Assembly: GCA_026391735.1 (NCBI GenBank)
Contig: JAPLDL010000016.1
Location: 865 to 64,864 of the forward strand
Origin: Bacteroidota bacterium
Lineage (GTDB): Bacteria > Bacteroidota > Bacteroidia > Bacteroidales > FEN-979
Direction: 5' to 3'
DNA length: 64,000 nt
Under the pieces are notes generated by a model, which was given only the letters and a program-made list of their open reading frames with translations, ran no database searches and was not told the DNA's origin. Shown here in pieces: positions 53,694 to 63,871 of this stretch; position 1 is the stretch's first letter, and every line of letters starts with the position of its first letter. Made by a program: the position numbers and the translations under genes.

Positions 53694-53722
53694 AGTAGCT
53701 TTTTGTTTGGTAATACAGGCCC

Positions 53723-53730
53723 TAATTTTG
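53723..53730 (+). promoter_or_regulatory. -7 promoter box (TAATTTTG) for the third LruC-domain gene
   Basis: TAnnTTTG match, 40 nt downstream of the proximal repeat (53683). TTTG elements lie at 53702-53709. Confidence 0.55.
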
Positions 53731-53798
53731 CAATTAATTATTATTCAGTAGATAATTATAAGCTAATTAGTCAAAATAACAAAATTAAAATACCATAC

Positions 53799-56783
53799 AT
53801 GAAACGTATTCCAGTTATCTTCATAGTCATTCTGAGTCTTTTTTTCTCACTCAGCAGCTGTAAAAAAGATCTTACTTCCAGGGACACTTCATCATCCAAT
53901 CCGACGAAGTTTACTGATCTTAAAACCGATCCGTCATTCACTTTTGAGAACTTCACAACAATAAACGCAAATATCAGTGTGAATACCTCTCAGGGCACAA
54001 CCATGAACATTATCCAGGTATACCAGGATGATCCCGGTTATGGCAAGCTCATTGCAACAGGCGTTTCTTACGGAAGTCAGCCATATAGTAATACTCTCCG
54101 CATTCCAAAGGCAGTTAAAACCCTTTACATCGCCTATGCCTCTTCTGACGGCAAACACGAGTCGGCTACTATAAGTATTAACGGGACTGACGTCGTTTAT
54201 GTGTTCGGAAAGACCAAATCAGGAGAGAATGCAGAAAACAGCTGCGGAACCGGAACTGCGATCACAACAAACCAGAGCAGCGTAACGGTGGGCTCAGGTC
54301 AAACTTATTATGTACCTTTCGGTTCAACCGTTACTATTTCTAATTTAACTGTCAGTACCGGAGGAACATTCAATAATTGCGGTACTGTAACAGTGAATGG
54401 ATTAAATGTAAGCTCTTCCAACGGAACAATCAATAATAACGGGACATTCACAATTACAGAGGATGTTGATTTTAAAGGCATATTAGTCAATAATGCCACT
54501 CTTAATGTCACCGGGAATCATGAATATAAAACTAATTCGGGTGGAAGTGTGATCAACAATTGCACCATGTATGTTACCGGGGATGTGTTTACCACTGGCA
54601 GCGGTAGTTTTACTAATAACGGATATCTTAAAATTACAGGAAACGAAGGAAGTATTAAAACAACAGGTGGTGGGATTCTTACTTTAGGCCCCCAAAGTTT
54701 GCTTGATACTCCGTATTTTGACCTTGAAGGTTCATGCAACGGGCCAGGGACCGCTTCTTATGCAGGCATCAAGACCCATGACGGAAAAACCACAGGGGGC
54801 GCAGGCATCTCAGGTTATGTGGACTTCTGTGCAAGCGGAACGATCCACCCTGATGGGGCAACTTATGGCCCACATGTGACATTCTGCACTCATTCAGTAA
54901 GCATTCCCAGTTGCTCAAACCCAATTGCCCCTGTTATTACCAGTGCACTTACCGCCGCTGGAACCGCAGGCCAGGCAATCACACCTTACGTGATTACAGC
55001 CACTGGAACCGAGCCCATTACATACACTGCAACAAATTTGCCTTCGGGTTTGACATACAATAGCAGTACTCATACTATCTCGGGAACACCGGCTGCTGCA
55101 GGTTCATTTAATATTACTCTGAAGGCGGATAACGCTGTAGGTACTGATACGAAGACCCTTGTGTTAACAGTTGGCGCTCCCGGCAATCCTCCTGCTATAA
55201 CCAGTCCAATGACTGCAGCAGGAACAGCCGCTCAGCCTTTCAGCTATACGATTACTGCTACGGGAACCAATACCCAGGCTTGTCCGCTGACTTTCAGTGC
55301 AAACAACCTGCCAGCAGGACTTACTTTGCAGGGTGGAAACATCATTGGAGGATCCCCTTCAGCCGCAGGAACATATGATATCACTATGACTGCGACCAAC
55401 TGTAACGGTACTGACACCAAACACCTGATCCTGACTGTCGGAGCTGCAGGAGTTGCCCCTGTCATTACGAGCCCGTTAACCGCCAGTGGCACTGCAGGAC
55501 AGGTATTTACACCTTATACGATGACATCAACAGGTACTACCCCTGTGACCTTAAATGCCACTAATTTGCCTGCCGGACTTTCATATGATAATTCAACTCA
55601 CCAGATAACCGGGAATCCAACAACACCTGGGACTACCAGTGTTATATTAACTGCATCGAATTTTTACGGAACTGATGTAAAAACACTTGTTATCACTATT
55701 GCCCAGGGAGCAGGAACACCTCCTGCCATCCAGCCCCCGCTCACTGCCACAGGTACAGTGGGATCCCCGTTCACACCGTATTTAGTGTCAGCCACCGGAA
55801 CATCTCCGATAACATTTTCTGCAACACAGCTACCCGATGGATTGTCATTTGATCCTATCTCGCACACAATAACAGGCACACCTACCTCTGCCGGTACATT
55901 TAATGTCCCTCTTACTGCGACGAACAATGTCGGAGTCGATAATAAAACCCTTGTGATAACAATAACCCAGGGCGGAGGTGGTTCGTTTTACTCGTACTAT
56001 CCGAACTCAGTGGATTACGGCACCTTCGTATTTGAAGACCTCTGGCCCTATTACGGAGATTATGACTGTAACGACCTTGTTGTGAACTTCCAATATAAAA
56101 TAACTTCCAATGAACAGAACCAGATCACTGATATCCAGGCAACCTTTATCTTTAAAGCTGCAGGAGCTACATTCAATAACGGTTTCGGGATTGTTTTAAA
56201 TACAAATCCGTCAAACATAGCTAGTGTTACCGGTTGTACTCAATATGGAAGCGCGGTCAGTTATGATCCAAAAGGATTTGAAGCTGGTCATTCCAATATG
56301 ACGGTTATTGTCCCGGTTGATGCCGTTAACACCATGTTTGGCAGGGGATTGGTCAATACAATAATTGGAAATGGATATATTCAGCCAGTCACAAAGGTTA
56401 TTAATATACATTTTGCAACTCCTCAGGCTAGTGTGGGCTCACTGCCATGGAATCCATTTATTTTCCAGGACCAGGTTCGCAGCCATGAGATCCACATGAA
56501 GAATAAAGCCAATACCGACTTTGCTGATATGAGTTTATTCAATACAGGCAATGATGGTTCCAATTCCGGACAGGGTGTTTATTATGCCTCACCAACCGGA
56601 CTGCCCTGGGCATTTGAGATCCCTGTTAATTTTGATTATCCGGTTGAAAAAACAGATATTCTCAACTGCTATAATCATTTTGCCGAATGGGCTACATCAC
56701 CGCAGGGACCTTCTAACCCTTATAATGACTGGTATATGGACAGCCCGGGATACAGGAATACAGCAAATCTCTGGCATCCGTAA
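53799..56783 (+). CDS. LruC (DUF4842) domain-containing lipoprotein with beta-helix-like region and four He_PIG-type Ig repeats
   Basis: ATG at 53799 gives MKRIPVIFIVILSLFFSLSSC (lipobox). The N-terminal domain and beta-helix-like region resemble 51408. Four ~88-aa repeats follow (P(A/P)(V/A)ITS.LTA.GTAGQ.F.PY...ATG..P(I/V)T..A.NLP.GL....T..I.G.P...G......L.A.N..G.D.K.L.(L/I)T(V/I)). C-terminal LruC signature: FVFEDLWPYYGDYDCNDLV ... WNPFIF ... HEIHMKN ... LPWAFEIP. Confidence 0.85.
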   Translation: MKRIPVIFIVILSLFFSLSSCKKDLTSRDTSSSNPTKFTDLKTDPSFTFENFTTINANISVNTSQGTTMNIIQVYQDDPGYGKLIATGVSYGSQPYSNTLRIPKAVKTLYIAYASSDGKHESATISINGTDVVYVFGKTKSGENAENSCGTGTAITTNQSSVTVGSGQTYYVPFGSTVTISNLTVSTGGTFNNCGTVTVNGLNVSSSNGTINNNGTFTITEDVDFKGILVNNATLNVTGNHEYKTNSGGSVINNCTMYVTGDVFTTGSGSFTNNGYLKITGNEGSIKTTGGGILTLGPQSLLDTPYFDLEGSCNGPGTASYAGIKTHDGKTTGGAGISGYVDFCASGTIHPDGATYGPHVTFCTHSVSIPSCSNPIAPVITSALTAAGTAGQAITPYVITATGTEPITYTATNLPSGLTYNSSTHTISGTPAAAGSFNITLKADNAVGTDTKTLVLTVGAPGNPPAITSPMTAAGTAAQPFSYTITATGTNTQACPLTFSANNLPAGLTLQGGNIIGGSPSAAGTYDITMTATNCNGTDTKHLILTVGAAGVAPVITSPLTASGTAGQVFTPYTMTSTGTTPVTLNATNLPAGLSYDNSTHQITGNPTTPGTTSVILTASNFYGTDVKTLVITIAQGAGTPPAIQPPLTATGTVGSPFTPYLVSATGTSPITFSATQLPDGLSFDPISHTITGTPTSAGTFNVPLTATNNVGVDNKTLVITITQGGGGSFYSYYPNSVDYGTFVFEDLWPYYGDYDCNDLVVNFQYKITSNEQNQITDIQATFIFKAAGATFNNGFGIVLNTNPSNIASVTGCTQYGSAVSYDPKGFEAGHSNMTVIVPVDAVNTMFGRGLVNTIIGNGYIQPVTKVINIHFATPQASVGSLPWNPFIFQDQVRSHEIHMKNKANTDFADMSLFNTGNDGSNSGQGVYYASPTGLPWAFEIPVNFDYPVEKTDILNCYNHFAEWATSPQGPSNPYNDWYMDSPGYRNTANLWHP
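54927..55970 (+). repeat. four tandem ~88-aa putative-Ig (He_PIG/dystroglycan-type) coding repeats
   Basis: Repeat starts read at 54927 (APVITS), 55188 (PPAITS), 55455 (APVITS) and 55719 (PPAIQP). Confidence 0.8.
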
Positions 56784-56817
56784 TCCTAAACAATTTTAAT
56801 TTCAGCTTTTGGTTAAA

Positions 56818-56847
56818 ACGGCTCTCCTCGGAGGGCCGTCTTTTTTT
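56818..56847 (+). terminator. rho-independent terminator (near-identical copy of 53586-53617)
   Basis: acggctctc-ctcg-gagggccgt followed by T7. Confidence 0.85.
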
Positions 56848-56904
56848 GCAGGATGGCAGTTTATCCGTAATTTTACATTGGTTTTAATTTCTTATCGGCA
56901 TTAC

Positions 56905-57645
56905 ATGAAAATCACATTTTTCCAGGTCCTTAATTATTCGCTGATCTTTTTTGCCATGATCCTTTTTATAAGGTATTTATGGGATATAATCTTTAACCCA
57001 GATTACGAGCCTGCAGCCTGGAAAGAAGCTAAGAAGGAAGGTAGGCTGACGGGTCTGCGGAAGGTTGAAAAACAATACAAGGATAAAGTCAGGTTTTTCA
57101 ATTTCTGGTTCCAGGTCGAACGGCTTAGAAAGGAACAGGTCGCCGGAGCTATGGCCGAACTGGGAGTATACCAGGGTGAAAGTGCCAGGATTTTACACTA
57201 TCTTGACCCTGCACGGAAGCTCTATCTTTTTGATACCTTCGAAGGGTTTAAAAACCAGGATCTTGCGATAGAAAAAGGAGTAGCGGCAACATACACCAGC
57301 AACAATTTTGCCGACACCAGTATTAATAAGGTACTCAGATTTATCGGCGGAAACGGGAACATATCGGTGCAACAAGGGTATTTTCCGGCCTCTGCCTTAA
57401 AACTGGTTCATGAGAAGTTTGCCCTGGTTAATATAGATGTTGACTTATACAACCCAACCAAAGCCGGTCTTGAATTTTTCTACCCGCGCCTTTGTCCGGG
57501 AGGAATCATCCTGGTACATGACTATAATTTTAAATGGGAGGGGGTGATCAGGGCTGTTGATGAGTTTTGCAAAACCATACCCGAATCCATGGTTATTATC
57601 CCTGACAGAGAAACTACCGTGATGATCATCCGCAGAAAATTCTGA
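56905..57645 (+). CDS. TylF/MycF-like class I SAM-dependent methyltransferase with N-terminal TM helix
   Basis: ATG at 56905; the track start at 56809 would read through the upstream terminator. Hydrophobic N-terminus (NYSLIFFAMILFIRYLW), then ELGVYQGESA, LFDTFEGF and VDVDLYNPTKAGLEFFYPRLCPGGIILVHDY, typical of the macrocin-O-methyltransferase family. Confidence 0.8.
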   Translation: MKITFFQVLNYSLIFFAMILFIRYLWDIIFNPDYEPAAWKEAKKEGRLTGLRKVEKQYKDKVRFFNFWFQVERLRKEQVAGAMAELGVYQGESARILHYLDPARKLYLFDTFEGFKNQDLAIEKGVAATYTSNNFADTSINKVLRFIGGNGNISVQQGYFPASALKLVHEKFALVNIDVDLYNPTKAGLEFFYPRLCPGGIILVHDYNFKWEGVIRAVDEFCKTIPESMVIIPDRETTVMIIRRKF

Positions 57646-58168: not shown

Positions 58169-58552
58169 ATGCCTACAATTTCGCAATTGGTTCGTAAAGG
58201 AAGACACAAACTGACAGATAAGAGCAAAGCTCCTGCCCTTGATGGATGTCCCCAGCGCCGCGGTGTTTGCGTGAGGGTTTATACGACCACTCCCAAAAAG
58301 CCCAATTCAGCAATGCGTAAAGTTGCACGTGTTCGTCTGACCAACGGGAAGGAAGTGAATGCTTACATCCCGGGTGAAGGCCATAATCTCCAGGAACACT
58401 CGATCGTGATGATCCGCGGAGGCCGTGTCAAGGATCTTCCCGGCGTTCGTTACCATATTATCCGTGGTGCCCTCGATACATCAGGTGTTGAAGGTCGCAA
58501 GCAGCGCCGTTCCAAATATGGCGCCAAGAAGCCTAAAGAAAAGAAAGCATAA
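58169..58552 (+). CDS. rpsL: 30S ribosomal protein S12
   Basis: [12 protein letters not shown]...[10 protein letters not shown], the canonical S12 sequence. Confidence 0.98.
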
Positions 58553-58575: not shown

Positions 58576-59043
58576 ATGAGAAAATCAAGACCAAAGAAAA
58601 GGATCATCATTCCCGACCCAAGGTTCAGCGATACGCTGGTGACCAAGTTCGTGAATAATATGATGTTCAGCGGCAAAAAGAACCAGTCGTACGACATCTT
58701 TTACGAAGCCATTGACATTGTAAGCGAGAAGACCAAGGAAGACGGCCTGGAAGTTTTTAAGAAAGCCCTTGCCAATGTCACTCCTTCTGTTGAGGTACGC
58801 AGCCGCCGTATAGGTGGTGCTACTTTCCAGATCCCTTCTGAGATAAGGCCTGCACGCAAAAGTTCAATCGGGATGAAATCACTGGTTGGCTATGCAAGGA
58901 AACGCCACGAAAAAAGCATGGCCCAGAAACTGGCCGCTGAGATCCTGGCTGCTTACAAGGAAGAAGGTGCCGCTTTCAAGCGCAAAGAAGACACCCACAG
59001 GATGGCAGAAGCCAATAAAGCATTTTCACATTTCAGATTTTAA
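58576..59043 (+). CDS. rpsG: 30S ribosomal protein S7
   Basis: 155 aa with [17 protein letters not shown] ... the canonical S7 sequence. Confidence 0.98.
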
Positions 59044-59076: not shown

Positions 59077-61179
59077 ATGCCCGGCCTCGAACATACCCGC
59101 AACATTGGCATTATGGCTCATATCGACGCCGGTAAGACGACGACGACCGAGCGTATATTGTATTATACCGGTATTAACTATAAAATGGGCGAGGTACACG
59201 ACGGCACTGCCACTATGGACTGGATGGTTCAGGAGCAGGAACGTGGTATTACCATTACCTCAGCCGCAACCACTGTTTACTGGGATTTTAAAAGCGAACA
59301 ATACCGAATCAACATCATCGACACTCCTGGCCACGTAGATTTTACAGTGGAAGTGGAAAGATCGCTGAGGGTTCTTGACGGGGCCGTTGCTTTATTCTGC
59401 GCAGTTGGGGGAGTAGAGCCCCAGAGTGAGACAGTTTGGAAACAGGCCGACAAGTACCTTGTTCCCCGCCTTAGCTACGTAAATAAAATGGACCGCACAG
59501 GAGCCGATTTTTTCAAAGTGATCGAACAGATCAAAGAAAAACTTGGCGCTAAACCGATCCCCGTTCAGCTGCCTATTGGTGCTGAAGAGGATTTCAGGGG
59601 AGTTGTGGACCTGATCTCGGGTAAGGCATATTCATGGGACGACGCTTCATTAGGAAAGGAATATTTTGAGATCCCGGTTCCTGAAGATATGAAAGATCTG
59701 GTTCGCGAATACCGCTCAAAACTTATTGAAGGAGCTGCTGAGGAAAGCGAAGAGTTGCTTCACAAATTCCTGCAAAATCCAGATTCGATTACTGAAGAAG
59801 ATGTTATTTTACAGATCCGCAAAGCCACGATCCAGAACAGGATCACCCCGGTCATCTGCGGAGCATCATTTAAAAATAAGGGAGTACAGACCCTGATTGA
59901 CAGTATTATCAGGTTCTTACCTTCACCATACGATATGCCCGCTATCAAGGGCATTAATCCCTTCACTGAAAAAGAAGAAGAGCGACATCCCGATCCTGAA
60001 GAACCGTTTTCGGCCCTGGCATTTAAAATTGCAGCCGATCCTTTTGTTGGGCGGATTGCTTTTTTCCGTGTTTATTCTGGAGCACTCGATGCCGGCGAAG
60101 TTGTGCTGAATGCCAATACCGATAAAAAGGAAAGATTGCTGCGTATCATGCAGATGCATGCCAACAAGCAGATTCCTCTCAAACGCATTGAAGCTGGTGA
60201 GATAGGTGTTGCAGTAGGTTTCAAAGAAATCCGTACAGGTGATACCCTTTGTGATATCAAGCATCCTATCATGCTGGAAACTATGAGTTTCCCAGAGCCT
60301 GTCATCAATATGGCTATTGAGCCTAAGACCCAGGACGATGTTGAGAAACTGGCTAACTGCCTGAAAAAGATGGCAGAAGAAGATCCTACTTTCAAAGTTA
60401 AAATTGATGAAGAGACCGGCCAGACCGTTATCAGCGGAATGGGAGAACTTCACCTTGATATTATTGCCGACCGGATGAGGCGCGAGTTCAATATCGACGT
60501 GAATCGTGGAAATCCCCAGGTAGCCTATAAAGAAGCTATTGTAAATTCGGTGATGCACCATGAGGTGTATAAAAAACAGTCGGGGGGCAAAGGACGTTTC
60601 GCAGATCTTTCAATTGAGATTTCTCCAGCCGACAAGGGAGTTAAAGGCCTGCAGTTCATCAATGATGTGAAAGGCGGCAATATTCCTAAGGAGTTTATGC
60701 CGGCTATAGAAAAAGGAATTAAATCGGGAATGTCGAACGGCCCGATCGTTGGCTTCCCGATGGAAAGCATTAAAGTACGTTTGATCGACGGGGCATTCCA
60801 CAGTGTGGATTCGGATGCATTATCATTCCAGATCGCTGCAGGGATCGCCTTCAGAGAAGCCACTAAAAAAGCTAAAGCTGTCATGATGGAGCCCATCATG
60901 CGGTTTGAGATCATCACCCCGAATGAAAGTATGGGTGAAGTAACCAGCGACCTTCATAAACGTCGCGGGCATGTTGAAAATGTTGAATCCAGAATTGGTA
61001 ATGCAGTTATTCATGGAAAAGTACCTCTTGCAGAAATGTTCGGGTATGTGACCACACTCAGGAGCATTACCAGCGGAAGGGCGACCTGCATGCTTGAATT
61101 TTCAAAGTACGCCCCGACTCCTCAGGAGGTTATGGATGAAGTGTTATTTAAAATCAGAGGCTACGTGCCTGTATATTAA
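59077..61179 (+). CDS. fusA: elongation factor G
   Basis: 700 aa with G1 [17 protein letters not shown] and NKMD motifs. Confidence 0.98.
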
Positions 61180-61187
61180 TCATTTAT

Positions 61188-61441
61188 ATGAGCCAGAGAA
61201 TTAGAATAAAACTGAAGTCTTACGATTACAACCTTGTTGATAAGTCAGCAGACCTTTGCCCACTGACAAGAAGATCTTCACTGTTTTACGCTCGACTTTT
61301 GTGAACAAGAAATCCAGGGAACAGTTCCAGCTCTGCACTTATAAACGCATGCTGGATATCTACAGCACGACATCGAAAACAATCGATGCACTGATGAAAC
61401 TGGAACTTCCTTCAGGAGTGGAAGTTGAGATCAAGGTTTGA
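61188..61441 (+). pseudogene. rpsJ: 30S ribosomal protein S10 gene interrupted by an internal ~52-nt deletion and frameshift
   Basis: The ATG at 61188 gives [21 protein letters not shown] (the S10 N-terminus), then runs out of frame to a TGA at 61302-61304. The S10 C-terminal two thirds ([25 protein letters not shown]...[11 protein letters not shown]) is read in a different frame from 61253 to 61441. About 18 codons normally found between KSA and PLPT are absent. Confidence 0.75.
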
Positions 61442-61482: not shown

Positions 61483-62112
61483 ATGTCTGGATTAATTGGA
61501 AAAAAAGTCGGGATGACCAGCATCTATGATGCCAACGGGAAGAATATTCCCTGTACCGTCATTGAAGCAGGTCCCTGTGTTGTTACGCAGATCCGATCCA
61601 AGGAAAAAGAAGGTTATGATGCCATCCAGCTTGCTTTTGAGGACAAGAAAGAGAAGCATACCACAAAAGCTGTGTTGGGCCATTTTAAGAAAGCAGGGAT
61701 CACCCCAAAGAAAGTTATTGCTGAATTTACCCGTTTCGAGGCTGACCATCAGAAACAATTCGGGGATATTGTCAAGGTAGATATCTTCCAGGAAGGCGAA
61801 TACATCGACGTGGTTGGTGTCTCCAAAGGCAAGGGTTTCCAGGGAGTTGTGAAAAGGCATCATTTCCATGGTGTCGGAGAAGCTACTCACGGGCAGCATG
61901 ACCGACTCCGAGCTCCTGGTTCGGTTGGTGCATCATCCTGGCCTTCAAGAGTATGGCCCGGGTTAAGAATGGCTGGCCGTATGGGTGGAAAGCGCGTTAA
62001 AGTGATCAACCTGCAGATTTTAAAGATAATCCTGGAAAAGAACCTCGTTCTTGTAAAAGGTGCGATTCCGGGACCTACTGGTGCATATGTAATTATTGAG
62101 AGATGGAAATAA
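61483..62112 (+). CDS. rplC: 50S ribosomal protein L3
   Basis: [32 protein letters not shown]..., the canonical L3 sequence. Confidence 0.97.
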
Positions 62113-62732
62113 AAGTATTTAACATTAAAGGAACAGAAACCGGCCGCAAAGTCAAGCTTGACGATGAGGTTTTCGGGATTGAGCCCAATGATCATGCCAT
62201 TTACCTGGATGTTAAGCAGCATATGGCAAATGCACGTCAGGGGACTCATGCTACCCTTGAAAAGTCAATGATCTCCGGTAGCACGAAGAAACTGCACAAG
62301 CAGAAAGGAACAGGCGGTTCCCGTAAGGGCAGCATTAAGAGTCCCTTATTCCGTGGAGGAGCCCGTGTTTTCGGCCCCCAGCCAAGGGATTATAACTTCA
62401 AACTGAACAAGAAGCTGAAGAAGCTTGCACGTATATCCGCCCTCAGCTATAAAGTGAAAGAAAGCAACCTTACAGTACTTGAGGATTTTACTTTCGATTC
62501 CCCGAAGACAAAGAATTTCACTGAGCTTCTGAAAAGTTTTCAGCTCACTGGGAAAAAGATTCTGGTCGTGGTGAATTCACCGGATGAAAATCTTTTGCTT
62601 GCTGCCAGAAACCTGAAACGACTGAAAATCGTCCGCACGGCCGACCTGAACACTTATGAGATCCTTGATGCAAAGCAGGTGTTGATGACCGAGAGTTCAA
62701 TTCCTGAAATTGTAAAGATTCATCAGAATTAA
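62103..62732 (+). CDS. rplD: 50S ribosomal protein L4
   Basis: 209 aa with the [27 protein letters not shown] block. Confidence 0.97.
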
Positions 62733-62752: not shown

Positions 62753-63043
62753 ATGAGAATTATTATAAAGCCTATCATTACAGAGAAGATGACCGCCCAG
62801 GGTGAATCCCTGAACAGGTATGGGTTCTTTGTAGACCGCAAGGCAAACAAACTTCAGATCAAGCAGGCTATCAAAGACCTGTATGGTGTCGAAGTTGAAG
62901 CGATCAGCACGATGATCGTTTTTGGAAAGAAAAAAAGCCGTTACACCAAAGGCGGTGTGATCTCCGGAAGGGCAACTTCCAGGAAAAAGGCCGTAGTAAC
63001 ATTGGCAAAAGGCGAAACTATTGACTTTTACAGCAATATTTAA
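62753..63043 (+). CDS. rplW: 50S ribosomal protein L23
   Basis: 96 aa starting IIKPIITEKMT..., the canonical L23 sequence. Confidence 0.96.
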   Translation: MRIIIKPIITEKMTAQGESLNRYGFFVDRKANKLQIKQAIKDLYGVEVEAISTMIVFGKKKSRYTKGGVISGRATSRKKAVVTLAKGETIDFYSNI

Positions 63044-63046
63044 ACA

Positions 63047-63871
63047 ATGGCGCTTAAGAAATACAAACCAACAACACCCGGTCAGAGGTTCAAAGTTATC
63101 AGTTCCTATGATGACATTACCACGATGACCCCTGAGAAGAGCCTGCTGGCACCTACCAGGAAGACGGGAGGAAGAAACAACCAGGGAAAAATGACCATGC
63201 GTTATATGGGCGGCGGTCATAAACAGGTTTACCGTATTATTGACTTCAAGAGGGATAAGGACGACATTCCCGGTCTGGTAAAGAGCATCGAGTATGATCC
63301 CAACCGGACTGCCAGGATTGCCCTGATCAACTACAAAGACGGAGAGAAACGGTATATCGTTGCACCTCATGGTTTAAAGGTCGGCCAAACGATCCTTTCA
63401 GGTAAAGGGGCTGCTCCTGAAATAGGGAACACCTTATTTCTGAGTGAAATACCTTTTGGTACCGTGATTCACAACGTGGAATTACGTCCTGGTCAGGGTG
63501 CCAAGATGGTCCGTTCGGCCGGGGCTTACGCCCAGCTGATGTCGCGTGACGGTAAATTTGCCATCATTAAGATGCCTTCGGGTGAAACCCGAATGATTTT
63601 ACAGACCTGCAAAGCTACTATCGGAGCGGTTTCTAATACAGACCATCAGCTTGAGAAGCATGGCAAAGCCGGCCGTAAACGCTGGCTGGGCCGCAGGCCG
63701 AGGAACCGTGGTGTTTCCATGAACCCGGTTGACCATCCAATGGGTGGAGGTGAAGGTCGCGCTTCCGGCGGGCACCCCCGTTCACGTAACGGTATGCCGG
63801 CAAAGGGCTATAAGACCCGTTCGAAGAAAAAGCAATCGAACCAGTATATCATTGAAAAACGGAAAAAGTAA
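63047..63871 (+). CDS. rplB: 50S ribosomal protein L2
   Basis: 274 aa with the [15 protein letters not shown] start and GGGEGR motif. Confidence 0.98.

Follow-up and report, generated by a model that had tools for sequence, protein, structure and literature searches.

Ribosomal protein S10 (uS10/NusE) is single-copy and essential in bacteria. In the stretch of Bacteroidales DNA analysed here (64 kb; hereafter the window), its gene rpsJ was marked in an initial annotation as broken by an internal deletion of about 52 nt. This raises the question whether the organism has really lost an intact rpsJ at this position, or whether the lesion arose during assembly of its genome.

rpsJ as deposited

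In the window, rpsJ lies where its orthologues do, between fusA and rplC, and the gene order rpsL-rpsG-fusA-rpsJ-rplC-rplD-rplW-rplB is that of all relatives. The features of the str/S10 operon are:

58169-58552: rpsL, ribosomal protein S12 (MCX6281611)
58576-59043: rpsG, ribosomal protein S7 (MCX6281612)
59077-61179, + strand: fusA, EF-G, intact and directly upstream of rpsJ (MCX6281613.1)
61188-61252, + strand: 5' part of rpsJ, codons 1-21 followed by GA, positions 1 and 2 of codon 22
61188-61304, + strand: frameshifted ORF of 38 aa caused by the gap, of which only the first 21 residues are S10
61252-61253: gap junction GCAGA/CCTTTG, at which 52 nt are absent in alignments with relatives
61253-61441, + strand: 3' part of rpsJ, codons 40-101 (PLPTDKK...GVEVEIKV) and the TGA stop, in a frame displaced by 2 nt from that of the 5' part
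61483-62112, + strand: rplC, ribosomal protein L3, intact and directly downstream of rpsJ (MCX6281614.1)
62103-62732: rplD, ribosomal protein L4 (MCX6281615)
62753-63043: rplW, ribosomal protein L23 (MCX6281616)
63047-63871: rplB, ribosomal protein L2 (MCX6281617)

The operon around rpsJ had been described as intact, and this was confirmed: fusA upstream and rplC downstream are whole, and the neighbouring genes are undamaged. The accessions MCX6281611 to MCX6281617 run along a single NCBI MAG contig of 96,018 bp in the same order as the genes. The accessions of EF-G and L3 are consecutive, with the S10 protein absent between them, and the rpsJ lesion is therefore present in the deposited record.

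Translation from the ATG at 61188 yields 21 S10 residues, followed by 17 unrelated residues up to the TGA at 61302-61304, and the frame 61253-61441 ends with GVEVEIKV and a stop and represents the remainder of S10. Using the S10 of an intact relative as query, tblastn matched residues 1-22 to 61188-61253 and residues 40-101 to 61253-61438, in different frames. The initial annotation had placed the S10 N-terminus at ATG 61188 in a frame closing at TGA 61302, and the remaining S10 in another frame from about 61253; translation agrees with the former, translation and tblastn with the latter. The intact relative's S10 covers the whole Pfam Ribosomal_S10 profile (PF00338; positions 1-98 of 98) with 123.5 bits. 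The 5' piece of the window gene covers profile positions 1-17 with 12.2 bits, which is under the cutoff, and the 3' piece positions 35-98 with 76.4 bits (E = 2.3e-21). As written, rpsJ is not one continuous ORF of ~100 aa that matches the whole profile, and, because it lacks residues 22-39 and is frameshifted, it should be unable to encode a functional S10. The locus resembles uS10/NusE genes (PF00338) of the Bacteroidota str-S10 operon in position, in flanking genes and in the orthology of both pieces to the 101-aa S10, with 100% identity of the 83 surviving residues to the S10 of the related locus L001; it differs from them in not being one ORF.

Some further observations concern the DNA upstream of the operon. 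Between 57646 and 58147, 502 nt without a long ORF precede rpsL and form the largest non-coding gap of the window besides the broken rpsJ; no tRNA and no Rfam family was found in them, and they presumably hold the operon promoter or leader. A gene for a TylF-like methyltransferase (56809-57645, + strand; Pfam matches on orthologues) lies before this gap. Its longest ORF starts with TTG and encodes 278 aa, compared to 193-247 aa for the orthologues, and its product is absent from the protein collection in which those of the neighbours are present; the deposited annotation probably uses a start further downstream. It follows a gene (53703-56783, + strand) for a 1026-aa protein with about five tandem repeats of ~90 aa (pattern …ITSPLTA.GT.G..F.PY...ATGT.P.T..A..LP.GLS.D..TH.I.G.P...G…), whose orthologue in the related locus L086 has DUF4114 and DUF4842 near the C-terminal end. 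This repeat protein is probably secreted or located at the cell surface.

Comparison with related loci

A search with the adjacent L3 protein yielded 80 related genome loci. S10 was unbroken and in one frame in every related locus with an S10 match (~70 loci), and 101 aa was the length of every S10 ORF read out from a relative; among the matches listed, two loci of a congener (with 20 further similar places) carried a called 101-aa S10. A naturally short, in-frame S10, which the initial annotation had named as a possible refutation of a broken gene, finds no counterpart here: the relatives are all full-length and single-frame, and the version in the window is out of frame.

DNA alignment with L001, L081, L082 and L087 revealed a single clean gap between 61252 and 61253. 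Its size, proposed as about 52 nt, is exactly 52 nt (alignments with L081, L082 and L087 included), and what is lost is the third position of codon 22 together with all of codons 23 to 39. The corresponding sequence of relatives is G AAG ATC GTA AAA ACA GTT AAG GCT ACC GG. GC. GT. GT. AGC GG. CCG ATT. The initial annotation had described about 18 codons as replaced by the five bases gacct. The 52-nt loss and the shift of frame are borne out by the alignments; the replacement is not, as the 'ga' before the junction belongs to the native Glu22 codon, of which it forms positions 1 and 2, and the 'cct' after it is the native codon for Pro40. Microhomology at the junction, read from the alignments, was 0 nt on either side. 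In the 64-kb window, tblastn detected no second S10 match, and the missing 52 nt were not found elsewhere in it, with only chance matches of 9-13 nt.

The surviving parts of the gene are strongly conserved. The DNA of the 5' part (61188-61252) is 100% identical to L081, L082, L083 and L087, and the 3' part (61253-61441) is without amino-acid changes relative to the four nearest relatives. Over all 83 surviving codons, 0 amino-acid changes and 4-11 synonymous differences were counted against these four, and 1-2 amino-acid changes and 40-53 synonymous differences against more distant relatives. SNPs of this species include A at 61288 and C at 61360, besides G at 61111 in fusA. The absence of amino-acid changes next to 4-11 synonymous differences indicates that purifying selection on rpsJ remained in full force while the lineage diverged. 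Signs of relaxed selection, i.e. non-synonymous changes or further lesions in the remnant, were looked for and not found in comparison with the four nearest relatives.

The 52-nt gap is also the sole disruptive indel across the 6-kb str/S10 operon. When the operon is aligned with L081 and L001, its other gaps either fall between genes or compensate each other, and the whole window is densely coding and contains 0 N; an error-prone assembly overall was ruled out on these grounds. A junction formed as a chimera of two lineages was ruled out likewise, since the left and right flanks gave the same ranking of nearest relatives (L081/L082 > L001 > all others).

Two known kinds of rpsJ or gene damage may be compared. 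With the frameshift-deletion pseudogenes of decaying genomes, the window rpsJ shares an out-of-frame internal deletion and a premature stop. Unlike these pseudogenes, it shows no build-up of non-synonymous changes, the gene is essential, the breakpoint lies at an assembler boundary (see below), and no other gene of the operon, and no obvious one in the window, is broken. Tigecycline resistance is associated with rpsJ mutations and small in-frame deletions near the tip of the S10 loop (~residues 53-60). Those lesions also lie in rpsJ, and they are real and viable; however, they are in frame, comprise 1-4 codons and affect the extended loop, whereas the gap in the window comprises 52 nt (17 1/3 codons), is out of frame and affects the alpha1/beta2 core.

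The nearest relatives are different species, with 93% identity in EF-G and 95% in L4 by protein search, and all have an intact rpsJ. Two metagenome contigs that share the rpsJ 5' end belong to another species (87% overall identity), and both are intact. No independent assembly of the window species was found in the collections searched. Consistent with this, the exact EF-G, L3, L4, S7, L23 and L2 proteins were each present on one contig only, and the species was apparently assembled once among ~15 billion catalogued proteins. Its nearest relatives, other species of the same genus-level group, come from boreal and other lake metagenomes.

The breakpoint and contig ends in related assemblies

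JAPLDO, an assembly with an adjacent WGS prefix, is named LacPavin_0920_WC90_MAG_43_10, and its sample belongs to PRJNA852163. Judging by neighbouring accession numbers, we infer that the MAG of the window comes from the same project and pipeline. The sister MAG GCA_026391775.1 appears to be part of the same submission (Lac Pavin). According to the paper on PRJNA852163, 150-bp paired reads were assembled with MEGAHIT 1.2.9 at default settings and scaffolded with IDBA-UD, and its authors noted ribosomal proteins that were fragmented through assembly errors.

In the sister MAG, contig JAPLDK010000064.1 (L083) stops 65 nt into rpsJ, precisely at the counterpart of 61252. A second contig of this MAG, JAPLDK010000072.1 (L087), has its start 141 nt before that point and runs through an intact rpsJ of 101 aa. 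Exactly 141 nt are shared between the end of L083 and the start of L087, and the two contigs could be joined. This 141-mer is identical to 61112-61252 of the window, with the first mismatch at 61111. Two features are defined by this comparison:

61111, + strand: species-discriminating base located exactly 141 nt ahead of the breakpoint; G (EF-G Ala codon GCC) in the window versus T (TCC) in the sister MAG
61112-61252: 141-nt block comprising the 3' end of fusA, the 8-nt spacer and the first 65 nt of rpsJ, equal to the overlap of L083 and L087

The largest k used by MEGAHIT by default is 141, a value often cited in the literature together with this assembler. The left contig would then have the block 61112-61252 as its last k-mer node (k = 141), and the left breakpoint of the gap, 61252, coincides with a contig end and k-mer node boundary. 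No unitig boundary is predicted at the right breakpoint, 61253. A unitig starting there was considered and rejected: it needs a differing base at 61394, yet this position opens a conserved Met codon.

In a third MAG (GCA_026391755.1), contig JAPLDN010000355.1 (L086) stops 20 nt into rpsJ. Because L083 and L087 overlap by 141 nt and L086 ends within rpsJ, the fusA/rpsJ boundary appears to be a recurrent point of fragmentation in these assemblies.

The region is one that the co-assembled genomes have in common. DNA identity to congeners is 97-100% for rpsJ versus 83-93% for the neighbouring genes, and no other DNA of the operon is as conserved among congeners as the fusA 3' end with rpsJ. For this reason the stretch acts as an inter-genome repeat for the assembler. 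The 97-100% identity extends over the fusA 3' end, the 8-nt spacer and rpsJ (61112-61441) in comparisons with L081, L082, L083, L087 and L001, and exact runs of 141, 109 and 107 nt are shared with congeners at the fusA 3' end and rpsJ. The neighbours are less conserved among congeners (83-84% for fusA, 85% for rplD, 88% for rplB). This conservation at the DNA level could be due to strong codon bias, to recent recombination or to a conserved translation-initiation or regulatory RNA element.

Origin of the gap

We consider the 52-nt gap to be, with high probability, a local assembly error at the join of two short-read metagenome contigs and not a feature of the genome. The initial annotation had held an assembly or sequencing error, or a second intact copy elsewhere, to be likeliest, and a genuine split S10 to be remarkable. 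An assembly error is supported by the position of 61252 at both the contig end of the sister MAG and the end of the 141-nt block; none of the observations calls for a second copy.

The error may have arisen as follows. Several closely related Bacteroidales species would occur in one lake with near-identical DNA at the fusA 3' end and in rpsJ. In a de Bruijn graph with k = 141, the paths of the window species and the sister species would converge after their last difference at 61111; the first 141-mer without a differing base would be 61112-61252, and each left-hand contig would stop at 61252. The next contig would start with the same 141-mer, as is the case between L083 and L087. If the scaffolder's paired-end distance then overstated the overlap with the right-hand contig, 52 nt too many would be trimmed. 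The IDBA-UD scaffolder would trim a negative gap, i.e. a contig overlap, when contigs are joined, and over-trimming at the join is presumably the responsible software step. We favour excess trimming of an overlap over simple abutment of two contig ends because 61253 is no predicted unitig start, with 61394 lying in a conserved Met codon. The error would fall at rpsJ because this stretch is the most conserved operon DNA among the co-occurring congeners, and the outcome would be a clean junction free of homology, a frameshifted rpsJ and an S10 protein missing from the annotation. If the gap is an artefact, reads clipped at the junction would spell GA(A/G)AA(A/G)ATCGTAAAAACAGT... and ...GGNCCGATT; one MEGAHIT contig at k = 141 would end at ...GTCAGCAGA, and another would begin inside 61112-61252.

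Errors of this kind have been described. Chen et al. 2020 (PMC7111523) reported that local assembly errors are especially prominent in IDBA-UD assemblies and that they spread incorrect protein-coding genes to public databases. The rpsJ case resembles their errors in that a consensus stretch breaks a conserved gene where relatives share sequence and contigs end, in the IDBA-UD scaffolding pipeline, and in the breakpoint at a contig end or k-mer boundary. In contrast to their cases, which are defined by a junction without perfect read support, the rpsJ case is known from assembled sequence. Among the error types listed by Chen et al. (unsupported consensus, Ns inserted despite overlap, wrong repeat counts), the second is akin to the present one, in which bases disappear where overlapping contigs are joined.

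Bases may also have been lost at another step, either through an N gap that was removed or wrongly closed at curation or submission, or through a sequencing or consensus error unrelated to a join. The window is without any N, the junction is clean and without homology, and several kinds of scaffold-gap error are described by Chen et al. (PMC7111523), all of which would suit such an artefact. However, the contig-end signature is common to this reading and to a faulty join, so that the two differ only in the tool that lost the bases. A random consensus error, moreover, is opposed by the 141-nt boundary, which indicates a contig end instead, and Illumina read errors do not give 52-nt deletions. 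Loss at another step is very unlikely. Counting every assembly or processing artefact together, the scaffold join included, we regard it as close to certain that the gap is of this general kind.

Conversely, a genuine deletion of any sort is very unlikely. The most plausible form would be a very recent 52-nt deletion that inactivated rpsJ in a cell living on another, intact rpsJ at a different place in the genome. The deposited consensus does carry the deletion, and only 64 kb of the genome are visible, which leaves room for such a copy. On the other hand, the breakpoint would have to fall by chance 141 nt after the last mismatch to the sister species and at the contig end of the sister MAG (roughly 1 in 100-300). 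Zero microhomology is unusual for slippage deletions, and the 0 non-synonymous changes over 83 codons also speak against this scenario. No second rpsJ was present in any relative within the fetched loci, and S10 is single-copy and essential in bacteria. We therefore see only a very slender chance for this scenario, and a comparably slender one for the broader case of a dead rpsJ at the canonical position with a relocated or second S10 or other compensation, in which the k = 141 match would be coincidental.

A deletion in defective or dying cells, or in free or relic DNA that dominates the reads at the locus, is more improbable still. It would require the same coincidence with the k = 141 boundary, and a lethal allele cannot be the majority where abundance yields a 96-kb contig.

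The weakest reading, programmed recoding by ribosomal frameshift or bypass that would produce a functional shortened S10 from both frames, has a next to negligible chance: the frames overlap at 61253-61301 and a -1/+2 shift is geometrically possible, but any shift would still leave out residues 22-39 (Pfam positions 18-34), which are conserved in all relatives. Because no X_XXY_YYZ heptamer occurs in the zero frame of 61188-61304, no Rfam match or tRNA that could explain recoding was found, and no solved full-length S10 structure lacks residues 22-39, recoding is predicted to be unable to rescue rpsJ.

With an assembly error at a contig join as the preferred explanation, the locus is almost certainly an ordinary uS10 gene in its ordinary place, and the gap no real feature. 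It illustrates how broken essential genes enter public MAGs when scaffolds are joined within conserved ribosomal genes. Possible consequences are lower completeness scores where single-copy markers are counted, the loss of taxa from ribosomal-protein phylogenies and false 'pseudogene' calls. The signature of such errors, a breakpoint exactly k nt past the last SNP to a co-assembled relative together with a junction free of homology, could serve for automatic flagging. For the organism, the gap is almost certainly without biological consequence, its S10 being normal; in the living cell, an S10 of the usual 101 aa is to be expected.
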